A DNA stretch of 23,996 nt from a virus (IMGVR_UViG_2713896899_000017), one strand, 5' to 3'. Counted from the first letter of the stretch, positions 3,949 to 12,160 are shown. Notes: generated from the sequence alone by a model not told the origin. Made by a program: numbers and translations.

Positions 3949-4802
3949 GCACCATCCTGAAATGGGCGGGAAATAAAACCGCCATTATGTCCGAACTGAA
4001 AAAACACCTTCCTGCTGGCCCGCGACTGGTTGAACCTTTCGCGGGTTCCTGTGCTGTGATGATGGAGACGGATTACCCCAGCTATCTGGTTGCGGATATT
4101 AATCCTGATTTAATCAACCTCTATAAAAAGGTTGCCGCTGATTGTGAATCGTTTATATCTCGCGCCAGAGTTTTATTTGAGATCGCAAACAGGGAGGTGG
4201 CTTATTACAACATAAGGCAGGAGTTTAATTACTCTACTGAAATTACTGATTTCATGAAAGCGGTATATTTCCTGTATCTCAATCGTCACGGTTACCGTGG
4301 TTTATGTCGCTATAACAAGAGCGGGCATTTCAACATTCCCTACGGTAATTATAAAAATCCGTATTTCCCTGAAAAAGAAATTCGCGCATTTGCAGAAAAA
4401 GCCCAGCGGGCAACGTTTATCTGCGCCAGCTTTGATGAAACGCTGGCGATGTTGAAGGCGGGGGATGTGGTGTATTGCGATCCGCCGTATGACGGCACGT
4501 TTTCCGGTTATCACACTGACGGCTTCACTGAAGATGACCAGTATCACCTGGCATCCGTTCTTGAACATCGGTCATCAGAAGGACATCCGGTCATTGTTTC
4601 TAACAGTGACACATCCCTGATCCGTTCGCTGTATCGCAATTTTACTCACCACTACATCAAGGCAAAACGCAACATCGGTGTGGCAGCTGGCGAGGGTAAA
4701 TCAGCAACAGAAATCATTGCTGTTTCCGGGCCGCGCTGCTGGGTGGGATTTGATTATTCGCGTGGCGTGGACAGTTCTGCCGTGTACGGAGTACGTGCAT
4801 GA
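3945..4802 (+). CDS. dam: DNA adenine methyltransferase (Dam-like N6-adenine MTase)
   Basis: [12 protein letters not shown]-terminus, FAGSCAV (AdoMet-binding FxGxG-like motif) and VYCDPPYDG (DPPY catalytic motif). GGAGGTG RBS; ATGA overlap with the upstream gene and with A. Confidence 0.85.
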
Positions 4803-7213
4803 GTCATGCCGATATGAACAACTGCTGCGGCTTTAACGAGGCTGCCGCAGCATTCTCATGGAACAGCCCGAAAAAGGCCATTAACCCTTATCTGGACCCG
4901 GCGGAAGTTGCGCCGGTTTCTGCGCTTTCAAACCTGATCACTCTGTACGCTGCCGATAACGAGCAGGAACAACTGCGCCGCGAGGCACTGAGTGATCAGG
5001 TCTGGGAGCGTTATTTCTTTAATGAATCCCGTGATCCTGTCCAGCGCGAAATGGAGCAGGATAAGCTAATTAGCCGGGCAAAGCTGGCGCATGAGCAGCA
5101 GCGTTTTAATCCAGACATGGTCATTCTGGCGGATGTCAACGCCCAGCCTTCCCATATCAGCAAGCCGCTGATGCAACGTATTAAATACTTCAGCAACCTG
5201 GGCAGGCCAAAGGCTTATTCCCGCTATTTGCGTGAGACGATTAAGCCATGCCTGGAACGACTGGAGCATGTACGCGACAGCCAGCTATCTGCATCTTTTC
5301 GTTTTATGGCAAGCCATGAAGGGCTGGACGGTCTGCTGATCCTGCCTGAAATGAGTCAGGATCAGGTGAAACGCCTGTCCACCCTTGTCGCTGCGCATAT
5401 GAGCATGTGTCTTGATGCCGCTTGTGGTGATTTGTACGCCTCCGATGATGTTAAGCCGGAAGAAATCCGCAAGACATGGGAAAAGGTGGCAGCAGAAACC
5501 CTGCGACTGGATGTCATACCGCCTGCGTTTGAGCAACTCCGCCGGAAAAGAAACCGCCGCAAACCTGTGCCCTATGAACTCATTCCGGGTTCGCTGGCGC
5601 GTATGCTGTGCGCCGACTGGTGGTATCGGAAATTATGGAAGATGCGTTGCGAATGGCGGGAAGAGCAGTTGCGTGCTGTCTGTCTGGTCAGCAAAAAAGC
5701 ATCTCCCTATGTCAGCTATGAAGCCGTGATGCATAAACGTGAGCAGCGCCGTAAGTCGCTGGAGTTTTTCCGTTCTCATGAACTGGTGAACGAAGACGGC
5801 GACACGCTGGACATGGAGGATGTGGTAAACGCCAGCAGCAGCAACCCTGCGCATCGCCGCAATGAGATGATGGCCTGTGTTAAAGGCCTGGAGCTTATCG
5901 CGGAAATGCGCGGTGACTGCGCCGTTTTCTACACCATCACCTGTCCGTCACGTTTCCATTCCACGCTAAATAACGGCAGGCCCAACCCGACCTGGACAAA
6001 TGCGACGGTAAGACAAAGCAGTGATTATCTGGTTGGCATGTTTGCTGCATTTCGTAAGGCGATGCACAAAGCCGGATTGCGCTGGTATGGCGTGCGGGTG
6101 GCTGAGCCGCATCATGACGGTACAGTTCACTGGCACCTGTTGTGTTTTATGCGCAAAAAAGATCGCCGCGCCATTACTGCTTTGTTGCGTAAGTTTGCCA
6201 TTCGTGAAGACCGCGAGGAGCTGGGGAATAACACGGGACCACGCTTTAAGTCTGAGTTGATTAACCCGCGCAAAGGAACGCCGACAAGCTACATCGCGAA
6301 ATATATCAGTAAGAACATTGACGGGCGTGGTCTGGCTGGCGAGATCAGCAAGGAAACGGGTAAATCCCTGCGTGATAACGCTGAATACGTGAATGCCTGG
6401 GCGTCTCTGCATCGTGTTCAGCAATTCCGCTTCTTTGGCATTCCGGGGCGTCAGGCTTACCGTGAACTGCGATTGCTGGCTGGTCAGGCGGCAAGGCAAC
6501 AGGGTGACAAAAAAGCAGGTGCGCCGGTACTGGATAACCCGCGGCTTGATGCAATCCTGGCTGCTGCTGATGCTGGTTGTTTTGCCACCTACATCATGAA
6601 GCAGGGCGGCGTACTGGTTCCCCGTAAATATCACCTCATCAGAACTGCTTATGAAATCAACGAAGAGCCGACCGCCTATGGCGATCACGGCATTCGTATT
6701 TATGGCATCTGGTCACCTATTGCAGAGGGCAAGATCTGCACTCATGCCGTGAAGTGGAAAATGGTTCGTAAGGCCGTTGACGTTCAGGAGGCGGCAGCCG
6801 ACCAGGGCGCTTGCGCCCCTTGGACTCGTGGCAATAACTGTCCCCTTGCTGAAAATTTGTACCAACAAGGGAAAGACAAATCAGCTGATGGAGATACCAG
6901 AACGGATATCACCCGCATGGATGACAAGGAGTTGCACGATTACCTGCACAGTATGAGCAAAAAAGAACGCCGGGAACTGGCAGCAAGGTTACGCCTGGTG
7001 AAACCGAAACGGCGTAAAGACTACAAACAGCGAATTACAGACCATCAGCGACTGCAGCTCGTGTATGAACTGAAGTCCAGGGGATTTGATGGCAGTGAGA
7101 AAGAGGTCGATTTACTGCTTCGCGGCGGCAGTATTCCGTCAGGAGCAGGCCTGCGTATCTTCTATCGGAACCAGCGTTTGCAGGAAGATGATAAGTGGCG
7201 GGATCTGTATTAA
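4799..7213 (+). CDS. A: Replication initiation endonuclease (P2 gpA-type rolling-circle initiator)
   Basis: 804-aa ORF with metal-binding [10 protein letters not shown] (HUH-like) and paired active-site tyrosines in YIAKYISKN, as in P2 A; follows the early genes as in P2/186. Confidence 0.85.
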
Positions 7214-7364: not shown

Positions 7365-7553
7365 ATGCAGGACTATTTTTTGGAGTCTTTGAAGCTCCAG
7401 CGCATTGATTTTTTTCTTAAGCTTGTAGCGGCTAGTGAGTGTAGTGATGAAGAGAAGGGGCTGGCCCTGCAGTGGGTTTCTGAACTGACAGATGAACTCA
7501 TGGCAAAAATCAGAACCCACGAATACAACCGCTCAATGGATGTCATCAGCTGA
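7365..7553 (+). CDS. Small SOS-controlled protein (62 aa), possible N-terminal Tum-like antirepressor part
   Basis: AGGAGG RBS at 7355-7360, ATG at 7365, directly downstream of the LexA box; sits where 186 tum lies (right of A). Function inferred from position only. Confidence 0.55.
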   Translation: MQDYFLESLKLQRIDFFLKLVAASECSDEEKGLALQWVSELTDELMAKIRTHEYNRSMDVIS

Positions 7554-7563
7554 GGTGACTTTT

Positions 7564-7797
7564 ATGCGCATTGAAATAATGATCGATAAAGAGCAGAAGA
7601 TTAGCCAGTCTACACTGGACGCCCTTGAATCCGAGCTTTACCGCAATCTGCGCCCCCTGTATCCCAAGACGGTAATTCGTATCCGCAAAGGTAGCTCTAA
7701 CGGTGTGGAACTGACCGGACTGCAACTGGACGAAGAAAGAAAACAAGTGATGAAAATTATGCAGAAGGTGTGGGAAGACGACAGCTGGCTGCATTAA
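7564..7797 (+). CDS. DinI-family protein (SOS regulator of RecA activity)
   Basis: MRIEIMIDKEQKISQSTLDALESELYRNL...KVWEDDSWLH resembles E. coli DinI (MRIEVTIAK...DALAGELSRR...ETWESADDWF). GAGGTGA RBS; immediately follows the previous ORF in another frame. Confidence 0.8.
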   Translation: MRIEIMIDKEQKISQSTLDALESELYRNLRPLYPKTVIRIRKGSSNGVELTGLQLDEERKQVMKIMQKVWEDDSWLH

Positions 7798-8067
7798 GAA
7801 ACGTTGCTGGCGTCTGAACTTGCTTCTGGCGTCAGCAAGGTTGAACAACGAGCTATGCGAGGCGTTAGTGTCAATTTGTTACCTTAACCACTATATATGC
7901 CAGGAAATTAACAGTTCTTAAGAAACCGCTTGCATGATCGAGCGCATTGAACTTAAGTTTAAGTAACGAAATCAACAGATGATATTGTTGTCTAAATTTT
8001 AAAGATAATCTGTTGAGGTTGTAGGCGTCGGAGTGTAGACTTCCGCGCCATGTTAAAAGGAGGAGTT

Positions 8068-8283
8068 ATGTCAAGCATCGCCGCATTTAGCCTGGGTAAC
8101 CCAGTTGAACGTCTGGCAAGGGTTCTTAAAGAGAACCAGGACAAACTCAATCTTAGTAAAGATGGTTTTGTGTCCGTAGACTTGTCTAACAAAAGAGCAA
8201 TGGATGCCATCAAGGCACAGATGGATAAGCTTGAAGGCATCAAAACGAGCACTGTAAAAGAGAAAACTAATAGAACCAGATAA
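8068..8283 (+). CDS. Small soluble protein (71 aa), first gene of a two-gene accessory operon
   Basis: Strong RBS AAGGAGGAG 3-4 nt before the ATG at 8068; no TM segment; stop overlaps the start of the next gene by 1 nt (TAATG). No recognisable family. Confidence 0.6.
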   Translation: MSSIAAFSLGNPVERLARVLKENQDKLNLSKDGFVSVDLSNKRAMDAIKAQMDKLEGIKTSTVKEKTNRTR

Positions 8284-9125
8284 TGGCAACATTACTTTTA
8301 GCAGTGATTTTGGTTAGTGGTTTTATTTATGTAAACCTATCACTTTCAACAAGATACCGATATAAGCGTTCCAACGGCTGGGACGCTTATTTTTTTGTGG
8401 CTGCCTGGGGTATCGTTTTTTTTCTCCTTGGCGGTTTTTTCACCTTTATTTTGAACGTCAGCGGAGGGTTTCGTTGGCTGGCGAATGCCTTGAATCTAAC
8501 ACCTGACAGTTTTAATGGCATGTTGTCTTCATCGAAAGACAAACTTCAAAGAATAAATGAAATCAAACAGATAGCATGGGTTATGATTTCAATTGTCCTC
8601 GCTGCGATTTCAGGTTTTGGAAATAAGTTACGCACATCACGTGGAGATCGTCGCTGGGATGCCTTAGCTAAAGCTGTGGGTAATAACGCTTTCGAATCAT
8701 TACTCATGGAAGCGTCCGCAAGACAGTTTCCGATCATAGCAACTCTGTCGTCTCGCAAAATCTATGTTGGTCTTGTTACTTGTCCGGCGTTAGAAAACGG
8801 GCTTTCAGAGCACCTTGAACTTCTCCCGATGTTAAGCGGATATCGGGATAAAGATGATCTAACGATTAGTATCACGACTAACTATCACCAACATTATCTT
8901 GATAGTGGTGTGATAAGTGGAATGTCTCGGCTTAATATCGAAGATTTCCGTGTGCTCATACCAAAAGATGAGGTTGAAACAATTTCGTTTTTTGATACTG
9001 AGACATATAACAAATTTAAAGAAAATGAAGCCAGGGATAGAAAGAACTGTCGAAAGATTGGTAGTAAAAGTGCATCTTCGCGCAGCAAGCGTGCAGCAGA
9101 TGCTGAGTCAAATGATCGTGCATGA
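8283..9125 (+). CDS. Membrane protein with three predicted TM helices and a roughly 165-aa soluble C-terminal domain ending in a basic tail; unknown function
   Basis: Hydrophobic segments TLLLAVILVSGFIYVNL, YFFVAAWGIVFFLLGGFFTFILNV and IAWVMISIVLAAISGFG; translationally coupled to the upstream small ORF; followed by a rho-independent terminator. Confidence 0.6.
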   Translation: MATLLLAVILVSGFIYVNLSLSTRYRYKRSNGWDAYFFVAAWGIVFFLLGGFFTFILNVSGGFRWLANALNLTPDSFNGMLSSSKDKLQRINEIKQIAWVMISIVLAAISGFGNKLRTSRGDRRWDALAKAVGNNAFESLLMEASARQFPIIATLSSRKIYVGLVTCPALENGLSEHLELLPMLSGYRDKDDLTISITTNYHQHYLDSGVISGMSRLNIEDFRVLIPKDEVETISFFDTETYNKFKENEARDRKNCRKIGSKSASSRSKRAADAESNDRA

Positions 9126-9173
9126 CTATGCTGCATGAGAACGCATGATCGTTTGAGGATCGTTTTTGCTAAG

Positions 9174-9197
9174 GCCCGCCAGAACTGGCGGGCTTTT
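9174..9197 (+). terminator. Rho-independent terminator of the two-gene operon
   Basis: GCCCGCCAG aa CTGGCGGGC perfect 9-bp GC-rich stem followed by TTTT. Confidence 0.75.
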
Positions 9198-9242
9198 GCG
9201 TAGATCATGCAACTGCATGAAAACCACTACATAAAGTGGGCA

Positions 9243-9261
9243 GGCGTGGCGGGGATACGAG
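9243..9261. other. Candidate cos (cohesive-end) site
   Basis: GGCGTGGCGGGGATACGAG: the first 13 nt match the P2/186 19-nt cohesive end as I remember it (P2 GGCGAGGCGGGGAAAGCAC, 186 GGCGTGGCGGGGAAAGCAT). Lies between A and Q, where cos sits in P2. Confidence 0.45.
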
Positions 9262-9328
9262 CGCGCGCAACGGGTTGTCATTCAAACTCCAATGCTATAA
9301 AACTGTGTAATACAAACAACTAAAGTAG

Positions 9329-11083
9329 GTGGCCTCAGTGGAACTGCAAGCAAATGCTCGAACCTTAACAAACGTGTTATCTGTAAATAAAAAATATATA
9401 GTCCCTAGATTCCAAAGAGAATATTCTTGGGGGAAGGAACAAGTAAGTGAACTTTGGCATGATATAGTTTCCAATATTCATTACCAGGAGGATGGGCAGT
9501 ATCAATATGATGAGTATTTCATCGGTGCTCTCGTTTTGGTCGGGCAGGAAACTAGCTCTGAGCTGATGATTGTAGATGGTCAACAACGTCTTACGACTCT
9601 TACTATATTGTTATCAGCATTATGTGATAAATTTAAGTTGATAAATGAGTTGGCTGTAGCTCAATCAATATATAATAATTATATATCTGGTATGGATGAC
9701 GATGGCAGACCTTTTTTTAAATTAGTTAATGAAACTCCTAAGCCATACTTTCAAAACAACATTCAGCATATTGATAAGAGAAATGAAGGACCGGAGTCCC
9801 TTGAAGAAAGAAACTTGCAATCTTCATATAATGATTTAACTGAGTATCTTTCAGAAGATAATCTTTGCCAGACATTAGGAGTAGATAGAGAGAAATTTAT
9901 CTACTTGGAAGCGTTGAAGGCTGTGCGGGATCAAGTTCTACGGTATCTGAAAGTGATTTATATTACAGTTAATGATGAAGATGAAGCTTATACAATCTTT
10001 GAAACTCTGAATGCTAGGGGATTAAACTTAAGTTATGTAGATCTTATAAAAAACAAATTATTTAAGAAACTGAATGGCACACATCCTGATGATGATGCAA
10101 AAACTAAATGGAATAAAATTAGGCAAATAATTGCTAGTCGTAATGGTGTCGGTTCTATCGAGACATTTATCCGTCATTGGTGGGTGTCAAAATATTCTTA
10201 TGTAAGTAGTGACACTCTTTATAAAGCTTTTCTGGATAAGTGGAAAAAAGGCGACATTGATGCTTCAGCGTTCATTGATGAGCTACTTTCAGATGCCGAG
10301 ATATATGTGAAAATATCATCGCCTACAGAACAGGATTTTCCTGAACTGGAAATGAAACCAGTTTATCGAGGTTTGCAGGCATTAAGGCTGTTTAACATAT
10401 CTCAGAATAAACCATTTTTGTTATCTTTATTTAAGGCAAGAGCAAGAGGAACGCTAAAACTTGTTGATATGAATAATGCAGTGCTGTCAATTGAACGCTT
10501 TCATTTTATGTTTAATGCTATTTGTTCATTGCGACCATCAGGTATTGAAAGTGCGTATGCTAAAGCTGCTAGGGCTTTAGTGGATGAAGGTTCTACTAAA
10601 GCTAGTAATAGACAAGTAATAAAGTCTTTGCTTGAAATGTTGGTGAAGAGAAAACCAGACATTAATATGTTTGTTGAAAAGTTTGTTATGCTTAAATTTT
10701 CAAATCAAGAGTTGAAAAATAAAAGGTTGATTCAGTACATTTTTAATAGACTTGAGTTACATCACATGAAAACGGGGGAGTATATGCCTGATTCATTAAC
10801 ATTAGAGCATATTCAGCCTCAGAGTGTGGGGGATTCTGAAGTATATAGCATGATAGGAAATTTATTACCACTTTCAAAAGAATTAAATGAAAAAGCTGGA
10901 AATAAGTCTGTTGTGGATAAGCTTGAAATTTATAAACAATCACAATATGCGCTAGTTAAAATTTTTATTGATGAATTTGAAAATAAATATCAAGGAGAAT
11001 GGACGCCCGATCATATGAGGTCAAGAGCTGCTGAACTAAGTATTTTATCGTATAATTCAGTATGGAAATTGGGGCGTGAGTAA
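9329..11083 (+). CDS. DUF262/DUF1524 two-domain protein (GmrSD-like type IV, modification-dependent restriction endonuclease family)
   Basis: N-terminal DUF262 signatures (PRFQREYSWG, IVDGQQRLTTL) and C-terminal His-Me/HNH-like region (LTLEHIQPQS ... NEKAGNKSVVDK). Strongly AT-rich. GTG start at 9329 per ORF track; an AGGTGG RBS favours the in-frame GTG at 9338. Confidence 0.7.
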   Translation: MASVELQANARTLTNVLSVNKKYIVPRFQREYSWGKEQVSELWHDIVSNIHYQEDGQYQYDEYFIGALVLVGQETSSELMIVDGQQRLTTLTILLSALCDKFKLINELAVAQSIYNNYISGMDDDGRPFFKLVNETPKPYFQNNIQHIDKRNEGPESLEERNLQSSYNDLTEYLSEDNLCQTLGVDREKFIYLEALKAVRDQVLRYLKVIYITVNDEDEAYTIFETLNARGLNLSYVDLIKNKLFKKLNGTHPDDDAKTKWNKIRQIIASRNGVGSIETFIRHWWVSKYSYVSSDTLYKAFLDKWKKGDIDASAFIDELLSDAEIYVKISSPTEQDFPELEMKPVYRGLQALRLFNISQNKPFLLSLFKARARGTLKLVDMNNAVLSIERFHFMFNAICSLRPSGIESAYAKAARALVDEGSTKASNRQVIKSLLEMLVKRKPDINMFVEKFVMLKFSNQELKNKRLIQYIFNRLELHHMKTGEYMPDSLTLEHIQPQSVGDSEVYSMIGNLLPLSKELNEKAGNKSVVDKLEIYKQSQYALVKIFIDEFENKYQGEWTPDHMRSRAAELSILSYNSVWKLGRE

Positions 11084-11110: not shown

Positions 11111-12160
11111 TCAAAAAGAATCGTTTGTGAAATTTAGGGAGTAGGCATCAAAGCGTATTGCTTCTTCGCCTAGCCAATAGTTAAGTTCTTGTAGCTGTTT
11201 CTGCAGGGGCATCAGTTCGTTGCGGACAAAAACACGACTAGCCTTCTCCACATCACCAAAGCCCCCAACATTATTAGGCATTATCCCCATCATTTGCGGC
11301 GGCACACGGTGTGCCGCCATCATGTCGTCCCGGCTCACGTTCTTGATATTCAGAAACTCATCCTTCGCCGCGACTTCTGACAACGGGATAATCTGAAGCC
11401 CGTCCTTTTTGCCGTTAGGAGAGTACATAAACAGGTTGCGGAAGTTGCCTGGCCCTTTGGCACTTTTCATTGCATTGCGGAGGTTGTTCACATCCTCCTG
11501 GTTCTGCGCGGCATCGGTCATGTACATGATGAAGCCTGCATGACTGCCGTTAATATAATACTTCCGGCGGAACAGCGTGGCGGACTCGTTGAGCAGGGCT
11601 GATGGAATGGCAGAAAGATAACTTGGCAGGCCGTAGATCTCCTGGTTGATGTCCGGTTCCATCAGATGAAAAATGCTGCCTTTCGTGAACTGATACGGCT
11701 GGGTTGTCATACCGTATTGCACAAACCAGTAGGTATCCAGGTCTAACCCGCGTCGGGTGTATTTTGCCAGAGCAGGCTCAAGGGCGATAACTTCACCGAA
11801 GCGGTTCGTGCGTTTCTCCAGGTAGGCGTTACCAAATACCAGATAGTCCTGCACAAAACGTGAAAAAGCCTGCTGGCTGAGCAGCGGGTGAGGGATGTAG
11901 GTACTGGTCAGAATGTTGCATTTCACCGCAATTGGTGAGCTGTGATGCACGGCGGCGCGGAAGGTTCGTGCCAGTCCGTCAAAGCTGACGGGCGGCTCAT
12001 ACCAGCGGTCCATCTGTACGCATTCCACATAGTCCAGCAGTTCTCGGCGGTCCAGAACAGGAACGGGATCGCCGAAGCTGAATGCTTCGGCTGTAGTCTG
12101 GCTTTTAAGCTGGATCTGTTTCGTCGCCGCAGCGCGGTTCTTCTTACTCTTTCCCATCAA
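11111..12160 (-). CDS. Q: Portal protein (P2 gpQ family)
   Basis: 349 aa, convergent on cos/accessory region, ATGA-overlapped by P upstream; P2 Q-like sequence and position. Confidence 0.85.
   Translation of the reverse strand: MMGKSKKNRAAATKQIQLKSQTTAEAFSFGDPVPVLDRRELLDYVECVQMDRWYEPPVSFDGLARTFRAAVHHSSPIAVKCNILTSTYIPHPLLSQQAFSRFVQDYLVFGNAYLEKRTNRFGEVIALEPALAKYTRRGLDLDTYWFVQYGMTTQPYQFTKGSIFHLMEPDINQEIYGLPSYLSAIPSALLNESATLFRRKYYINGSHAGFIMYMTDAAQNQEDVNNLRNAMKSAKGPGNFRNLFMYSPNGKKDGLQIIPLSEVAAKDEFLNIKNVSRDDMMAAHRVPPQMMGIMPNNVGGFGDVEKASRVFVRNELMPLQKQLQELNYWLGEEAIRFDAYSLNFTNDSF

Follow-up and report, generated by a model that had tools for sequence, protein, structure and literature searches.

The interval between the replication gene gpA and the portal gene gpQ of P2-like prophages is an experimentally validated anti-phage hotspot with many occupants, and the transmembrane (TM) proteins of known anti-phage systems are believed to be suicide effectors upon infection (Rousset et al., 2022, PMC9122126). 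Several validated P4- and P2-hotspot systems, namely Hydrolase+3TM, the 2TM+1TM+TIR system of AC1 and RT-nitrilase+1TM, follow the logic of a membrane protein with a partner. The P22 proteins SieA and SieB are likewise membrane-protein cargo of a prophage. Here we analyze a pair of genes found in this hotspot (positions 8068–9125) in IMGVR_UViG_2713896899_000017, a 23,996-nucleotide stretch of viral DNA, called the window below, which is a P2-like prophage of Escherichia coli. The pair encodes a soluble protein of 71 amino acids followed by a membrane protein of 280 amino acids. It occupies the same kind of locus as the validated systems and has the same membrane-protein-plus-partner logic; its partner differs from theirs in being a 71-residue protein without an enzymatic or TIR domain. 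Unlike the pair, SieA and SieB are each annotated as a lone gene that lacks a small partner gene upstream.

Our analysis identifies the pair as an autonomous two-gene cargo module (a ‘moron’) carried by temperate phages as well as other mobile elements. Of its two products, the larger is an inner-membrane protein with three TM helices and the smaller is its translationally coupled, co-inherited partner. We regard the pair as a good candidate for experiment rather than a demonstrated system, and as a candidate for a known kind of arrangement, phage cargo that combines a membrane effector with a small partner, in which one component would be unprecedented in that role.

The sequence itself is not new. 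The pair is abundant in databases, and exactly this combination (WP_000094764 and WP_000212611) appears, unannotated, in Table S5A of the published hotspot catalogue, whose Table S5B also lists two divergent paralogues, #43 (93 loci) and #57 (75 loci), as recurrent unannotated P2-hotspot ‘systems’ (Rousset et al., 2022, PMC9122126). Both paralogues belong to the same family and have the SGYRDKD motif and the TM-plus-barrel plan described below, and #57 also has a small partner with a GRG hairpin motif. Neither the pair nor #43 or #57 is among the tested systems in the portions of Table S2 that were covered (parts 1–2 of 4, or by motif or accession search; PMC9122126). The description of the pair as a candidate for an undescribed system in a first-pass annotation of the window, made from the sequence alone, is thus qualified by this catalogue, whose entries for it are unannotated and untested. 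What is new is the large coherent two-gene family, the Sm-like fold predicted for its membrane-anchored domain, its presence in several cargo slots, and a P2 hotspot that is split by cos. The first-pass annotation had contained neither the predicted fold nor the extent of the family nor cos as a boundary.

A co-inherited two-gene unit in several cargo slots

The stop codon of the small gene overlaps the start codon of the membrane gene (agaTAATGgca), and the small gene is preceded by a Shine-Dalgarno sequence (Table 1). The region is 99.9% identical to E. coli WL7562, in which the RefSeq annotation from the Prokaryotic Genome Annotation Pipeline (PGAP) carries both coding sequences alike (WP_000094764 for the small protein, WP_000212611 for the membrane protein). 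The first-pass annotation had read this locus as two tightly coupled open reading frames (ORFs) between A and Q, with a strong ribosome-binding site and a TAATG overlap, the second encoding three N-terminal TM helices, a cytoplasmic domain of roughly 165 residues and a Lys/Arg/Ser-rich tail. ORF calls and PGAP confirm the two reading frames, the binding site and the overlap are visible in the sequence, and the position between gpA and the portal gene stands. Hydropathy and structure prediction bear out the helices, an inference from the positive-inside rule upholds the cytoplasmic domain, and the tail is present.

To define the family, we searched a profile of the membrane protein against 1.84 billion cluster representatives (clusters at 50% identity). 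The search recovered 2,887 relatives at E-values up to 1e-3 and 2,016 at E-values up to 1e-10, almost all of them 240–290 residues long and matching over their full length, from Proteobacteria and some Acidobacteria. A scan restricted to one genome per species yielded 80 loci from Enterobacterales, Vibrionaceae, Shewanella, Pasteurellaceae, Neisseria, Snodgrassella, Advenella, Pseudomonas, Xanthomonas and Acidobacteria. An ORF of 53–100 codons abuts or overlaps the start of the membrane gene in practically all of these loci (a single locus, L077, is without one). The small partners of the sampled loci are homologous to the 71-residue protein of the window, sharing its hairpin core or a GRG variant of it followed by an amphipathic helix. 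Because homologues with this conserved motif directly precede the membrane gene in nearly all loci across many genera, we conclude that both genes are real and that they form an ancient two-gene unit. The two proteins diverge in parallel: their pairwise identities correlate with a Mantel r of 0.84, a value reached by none of 999 permutations, as expected from joint inheritance and transfer of one unit.

Members of the family occupy unrelated positions in mobile elements. The slot between gpA and cos carries them in P2-like prophages of Escherichia, Klebsiella, Salmonella, Citrobacter, Serratia, Buttiauxella, Photorhabdus and Edwardsiella; the version found in the window is present in 52 of 5,426 complete E. 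coli genomes. A relative in an Enterobacter hormaechei lambdoid prophage is inserted between tail genes K and I/J. The nin region of an E. coli lambdoid prophage holds a pair with 52% identity, placed directly after hok/gef and before RusA and Q (L091, 5390–6819); two membrane-active cargo modules thus adjoin at this locus. Conjugative IncC plasmids of Salmonella carry relatives adjoining an AAA ATPase. On one of them, pSTY1-2010K-1587, a divergent pair (68 and 262 residues) is found directly 3′ of a 547-residue AAA-family ATPase (L086, 3872–6789), between a mer transposon and a DNA methyltransferase, a region that may represent a small plasmid-borne defence islet. Versions consisting of the C-terminal domain only are found at the ends of phage genomes (SEN4/SEN5, phiES15 and vB_Pae_U5/U6). 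Chromosomal members flanked by housekeeping genes also exist.

The pair is separable from its neighbours in the window. Beyond the pair, on the other side of a cos-site homologue, lies a GmrSD-type DUF262/DUF1524 gene. Identical copies of the pair in other prophages are followed beyond cos by different cargo, namely a PIN protein, a hypothetical protein with a TIR protein, two hypothetical proteins, or a SEFIR or SieB-domain protein, and the same GmrSD protein is found without the pair. The G+C content also differs, at 41% for the pair, 34% for the GmrSD gene and 53% for the backbone. The pair and the GmrSD gene are therefore independent modules, and a single operon comprising both is ruled out by the different G+C contents, the intervening cos, the GmrSD gene without the pair and the pair with other partners. 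We also looked for a conserved third gene among three ORFs on each side of 47 loci; no Pfam family recurs, and no third gene is part of the unit. With respect to virion DNA, the pair lies on the gpA side of cos, at the right end, and the GmrSD gene at the left end, on the portal side. What is called the P2 ‘A-to-Q hotspot’ thus consists of two cargo slots, one on either side of cos, which are filled independently.

Predicted architecture of the two proteins

Neither protein, nor any of ten divergent relatives, has a significant match in Pfam, NCBIfam or PADLOC, and PDB sequence profiles have no match to either protein, in agreement with the first-pass statement that no known family could be assigned. 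Each protein matches one PHROG family, both of unknown function. An AlphaFold2 model of the membrane protein was built from 36 homologues (pLDDT, the predicted local distance difference test, 78). It places long helices at residues 2–19, 33–60 and 87–119, matching the TM segments seen by hydropathy. Basic stretches occur in the loop RYRYKRS after TM1 and in the segment after TM3. By the positive-inside rule, the loop after TM1 implies that the N-terminus is outside and that the C-terminal part of about 165 residues is cytoplasmic.

In the model an N-terminal helix of the cytoplasmic part leads into a bent antiparallel sheet of five strands, the arrangement that defines the Sm fold, and a Foldseek search is consistent with this assignment. 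The domain is thus predicted to share its fold with the Sm/LSm/Hfq superfamily of ring-forming beta-barrels, to which WYL domains are more distant. It differs from this superfamily in having a three-TM anchor, a helix-bearing insertion between beta4 and beta5, and motifs of its own (RKxYVG, SGYRDKD and TTNYxxHY). The invariant residues of the family cluster in the barrel domain (RKxYVG, LSGYRDKD, TTNYxxHY and SFFD), with further invariant residues at the cytoplasmic ends of TM1 and TM2 (R29, Y36 and G43). Comparison of profiles by hhalign gives non-significant probabilities of 1.3% against SmAP1 and 0.1% against Hfq; despite this, the best local alignment sits exactly on the Sm1 strand pair. 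Pfam LSM and Hfq have no match at E-values up to 1, and the Sm1 and Sm2 sequence motifs are undetected by profile. Since the sequence relationship to SmAP1 and Hfq is not significant, we describe the domain as predicted to be Sm-like in fold rather than as a family member.

The E. coli channel MscS is a protein of about 280 residues with three N-terminal TM helices, an outside N-terminus and a cytoplasmic beta domain of Sm-like topology, and forms a heptameric ring. The overall plan of the 280-residue membrane protein resembles that of MscS-type channels. A relationship to MscS is unsupported, with no MS_channel profile match and no structural match of TM3 plus the beta domain.

Two side observations concern the membrane gene. 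About 80 nucleotides inside it, at 8362–8400 on the plus strand, a terminator-like element was flagged, a 12-bp hairpin with TTTTTTT after it. This element codes for the conserved KRSNGWDAYFFV stretch and may be coincidental or an attenuator. One homologue of the membrane protein is named ‘HrcA’ in databases, a name with no profile basis.

The 71-residue protein is predicted to fold as helix, beta-hairpin and helix; its hairpin carries the conserved motif (K/R/N)(D/N)G-x-h-S-h-(N/D). A structure model of it retrieved no significant analogue. The protein is widely misnamed ‘multidrug ABC transporter ATPase’, and also ‘YobD’, in NCBI and UniRef; neither name is supported by any profile match. 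At four loci of the Pseudomonas fluorescens group (L053, L054, L060 and L062) the small partner has a conserved C-terminal D(E/D)SW(A/G)C and its gene overlaps the membrane gene by 13 nucleotides. Some small partners have a hydrophobic N-terminal segment, as in Snodgrassella (L061; MKKIFGIMTGLLSCVALG, lipoprotein-like) and Aeromonas (L017; MWIIALVLLLVAVLAV), which hints that in some lineages the partner itself may be membrane-attached, unless the start codons are over-extended.

Boundaries and neighbouring genes

The features of the window that bear on the pair are collected in Table 1.

Table 1. Coordinates of the pair, its protein features and its surroundings in the window.
Feature	Positions	Strand	Basis or remark
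Replication endonuclease gpA	4799–7213		
62-residue ORF (PHROG 698, unknown function) and DinI-like gene, between gpA and the pair	7365–7797	+	
Upstream intergenic region 3′ of the DinI-like gene, presumed promoter site of the pair	7798–8056	+	259 bp without ORF
Shine-Dalgarno AAGGAGGAG of the small gene	8057–8065	+	read from sequence; two bases 5′ of the ATG at 8068
Small partner gene, 71 residues, soluble	8068–8283	+	ORF
Membrane protein gene, 280 residues	8283–9125	+	ORF; PHROG 3630, E 3.3e-99
Three TM helices, residues ~3–21, 36–60 and 94–114	8289–8624	+	Kyte-Doolittle hydropathy windows
Predicted cytoplasmic Sm/LSm/Hfq-like beta-barrel domain, residues ~136–236	8688–8990	+	holds most conserved family motifs, LSSRKxYVG and LSGYRDKD...TTNYxxHY
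Variable Lys/Arg/Ser-rich C-terminal tail, residues ~250–280	9030–9122	+	not conserved in family alignment; low pLDDT
G+C-rich hairpin followed by UUUU, terminator-like, closing the unit	~9171–9197	+	11-bp stem
cos-site homologue, boundary outside the module	~9215–9270		alignment with P2 and P4 cos regions
GmrSD-type DUF262/DUF1524 gene	9329–11083	+	
Portal Q	11111–12160	minus	

The first-pass annotation had closed the unit with a strong terminator at 9174–9197. The hairpin is real: a 66-nucleotide stretch around it folds at -28.5 kcal/mol (z = -3.8), and it fails the terminator scanner's rule of at least five T. However, the backbone segment 9118–9250 that includes it is 91–95% identical in dozens of P2-like phages without the pair, so that the hairpin is not private to the operon but belongs to the backbone, and cos also bounds the unit.

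We located cos by alignment of the window with the P2 and P4 cos regions, using as references the sequences in Table S2 of PMC9122126. The alignment has 40 invariant columns, including a GGCG-GGCGGGGA core, and the window homologue reads GGCGTGGCGGGGATACGAGCGCGCGC. The P2 cos 19-mer was not found in the window within three mismatches; the alignment nonetheless shows a homologous, diverged site. ORFs at 9135–9323 on the plus strand are probably not genes, because they cross both the terminator hairpin and cos. PGAP annotates a pseudogene there (‘hypothetical protein, internal stop’), and a Klebsiella phage record has an intact ORF of 69 codons at this place.

The GmrSD-type gene between cos and the portal gene has strong PADLOC matches to the HEC-06 and Orf5 models (E 3.8e-90) and is a separate candidate type IV restriction-like defence gene. 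The terminase gene P follows portal Q in gene order and is also on the minus strand. On the gpA side, the PHROG 698 ORF and the DinI-like gene are kept in the P2-like prophages examined, independent of the cargo beyond cos.

A proposed role in phage exclusion and rival explanations

We tentatively favour, with somewhat less than even confidence, the reading that the pair is a prophage-expressed phage-exclusion module made of a ring-forming membrane effector and a small regulator. Five observations lead us to favour it: the repeated residence of the pair in cargo slots of unrelated temperate phages, its location in the one hotspot in which anti-phage activity has been demonstrated for many occupants, its shuffling independently of neighbouring defence genes, its great sequence diversity, and the presence of a membrane protein, a type believed to act as a suicide effector (Rousset et al., 2022, PMC9122126). 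The low G+C content, the combination with various cargo beyond cos, the recurrence of versions #43 and #57 in the hotspot, the relatives on IncC plasmids, the near-universal partner, the correlated divergence of the two proteins and the predicted Sm-like fold also count in its favour. Association with defence genes or defence hotspots is marked in P2-like prophages and is seen in lambdoid cargo slots, but PADLOC matches are few among the flanking ORFs of the other loci described below.

According to this reading, the cytoplasmic Sm-like domains would assemble as a hexameric or heptameric ring, like other Sm-fold proteins, and the ring would gather 18–21 TM helices in one membrane assembly, the effector. 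This picture draws on the usual behaviour of Sm folds and on the MscS-like overall plan. The small protein would bind the assembly and either keep it inactive or couple it to a trigger. Expressed from the prophage, the module would exclude competing phages, either through a collapse of membrane integrity after infection (abortive infection) or through a block of genome entry at the inner membrane (superinfection exclusion). In a more specific version, which we consider distinctly improbable, the family would form a new class of sensor-effectors embedded in the membrane, in which the Sm-like ring directly under the inner membrane senses phage nucleic acid as it enters or is synthesised, or a phage protein delivered by the partner, and gates the 18–21-helix assembly. 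If true, an Sm/Hfq-type ring would for the first time provide the sensor of an immune or exclusion system.

Several points weigh against exclusion. The ring, the pore and the binding of the partner are proposals drawn by analogy. In PADLOC-DB v2.0.0 the small protein has no match, the membrane protein reaches an insignificant E-value of 0.14, and none of the ten divergent members is significant. No sequence relationship connects the membrane protein to Hydrolase+3TM or 2TM+1TM+TIR (hhalign probabilities of 0.3% and 0.2%), and a relationship to SieA or SieB is unsupported, with probabilities below 1% each and no Pfam SieB match. In 47 loci, mostly outside P2-like prophages, about 19 of 271 flanking ORFs match any PADLOC model, many of these models being generic, and any excess is at most weak and is uncalibrated; flanking genes there are chiefly housekeeping genes, with an integrase in about eight loci. 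Non-defence cargo, for example partition systems and the cdt toxin, is found in the P2 hotspot itself as well (Rousset et al., 2022, PMC9122126). In the Pseudomonas fluorescens group the pair lies at one conserved chromosomal position after a shared 651-residue ORF. The pair and the portal protein show similar divergence in distant P2-like prophages (46–57% versus 46–55%), so that the pair behaves there more like an old resident than like cargo exchanged at a fast rate. A search for a sigma-70 consensus promoter on the plus strand of the upstream region gave none. Database names of members are ‘hypothetical’ or spurious.

Other searches of the defence literature gave negative results. The motifs and accessions of the pair are absent from those supplements of Vassallo et al. 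(2022) that were searched, no PADLOC PD-T4, PD-T7 or PD-Lambda model matches, and our literature search found neither an Sm-like membrane defence or exclusion protein nor any mention of the accessions. Identity with Rst_3HP or with the 2TM+1TM+TIR system of AC1 is ruled out by the cloned protein sequences and by hhalign. A SieB-domain gene co-occurs with the pair in some P2 loci. At the P. fluorescens loci, Oxidored_FMN/Pyr_redox and TetR recur among the set of upstream ORFs; from these family counts, rather than from per-gene assignment, we infer that the 651-residue ORF may be FadH-like and that a TetR gene may neighbour it.

Non-defence cargo in the hotspot, the mostly metabolic or regulatory neighbours of distant members and the conserved position across many Pseudomonas species are what a role in host physiology or lysogenic conversion would explain. 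Here the membrane protein would be, for example, a membrane-tethered Sm/Hfq-like binder of RNA or ligands, acting in envelope stress or localised RNA control and merely spread by mobile elements, and the predicted Sm-like fold is one typically seen in rings that bind RNA or ligands. We consider this unlikely, though to be taken seriously: the match to Sm/Hfq motifs is not significant by hhalign, and the most conserved motif, SGYRDKD, falls in the model in the beta3-beta4 loop, which we take not to be the canonical RNA pocket of Sm proteins. The patchy, diverse distribution and the recurrent placement in phage cargo slots also argue against it. An addiction module of the toxin/antitoxin kind, with a membrane toxin and a small antitoxin whose benefit would be to stabilise a prophage, plasmid or island, seems to us improbable. 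The layout of the pair is the classical type II one, a small upstream gene whose stop overlaps a larger downstream gene; family members occur on plasmids and prophages, one relative directly beside hok/gef; and the small gene is intact at four loci where the membrane gene is truncated (L016, L019, L023 and L035). Against type II families, however, neither protein has a Pfam, NCBIfam or PADLOC match, and no known antitoxin fold or toxin family was found. 

The placement of the pair directly beside cos in P2-like phages raises a further explanation: the pair could serve the life cycle of the phage itself, for instance in the timing of lysis, in DNA ejection or entry, or in packaging. Several distant P2-like prophages have nothing but the pair between gpA and cos, where it has diverged in step with the backbone, and one relative lies inside a tail gene cluster. 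Yet of the 672 E. coli genomes matching the query stretch, most of which match solely in its cos-flanking segment, only 52 contain the pair, and relatives occupy unrelated positions in unrelated phages as well as plasmids and phage-free chromosomal sites. We consider a life-cycle function highly improbable. The first-pass annotation had proposed a defence-hotspot module of the abortive-infection or toxin/antitoxin type. Of this proposal, a coupled, separable, low-G+C cargo unit in the validated P2 hotspot stands; the defence, abortive-infection or toxin/antitoxin nature is not established, no defence model matches, and the neighbours of distant members are mostly housekeeping genes with at most the weak PADLOC excess given above.

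At 1.1 kb the pair is small and readily cloned from E. coli. If it excludes phages, it would represent a widespread two-gene system of about 2,900 clusters at 50% identity, reaching from Enterobacterales to Pseudomonas, Neisseria, Pasteurellaceae and Acidobacteria, with an effector architecture that has no counterpart among described defences, and three recurrent unannotated P2-hotspot cassettes would be accounted for. Even otherwise, the pair defines a large family missing from Pfam and NCBIfam, for which we offer, as a hypothesis of its structure, a ring of Sm-like domains anchored in the membrane together with an obligatory small partner.
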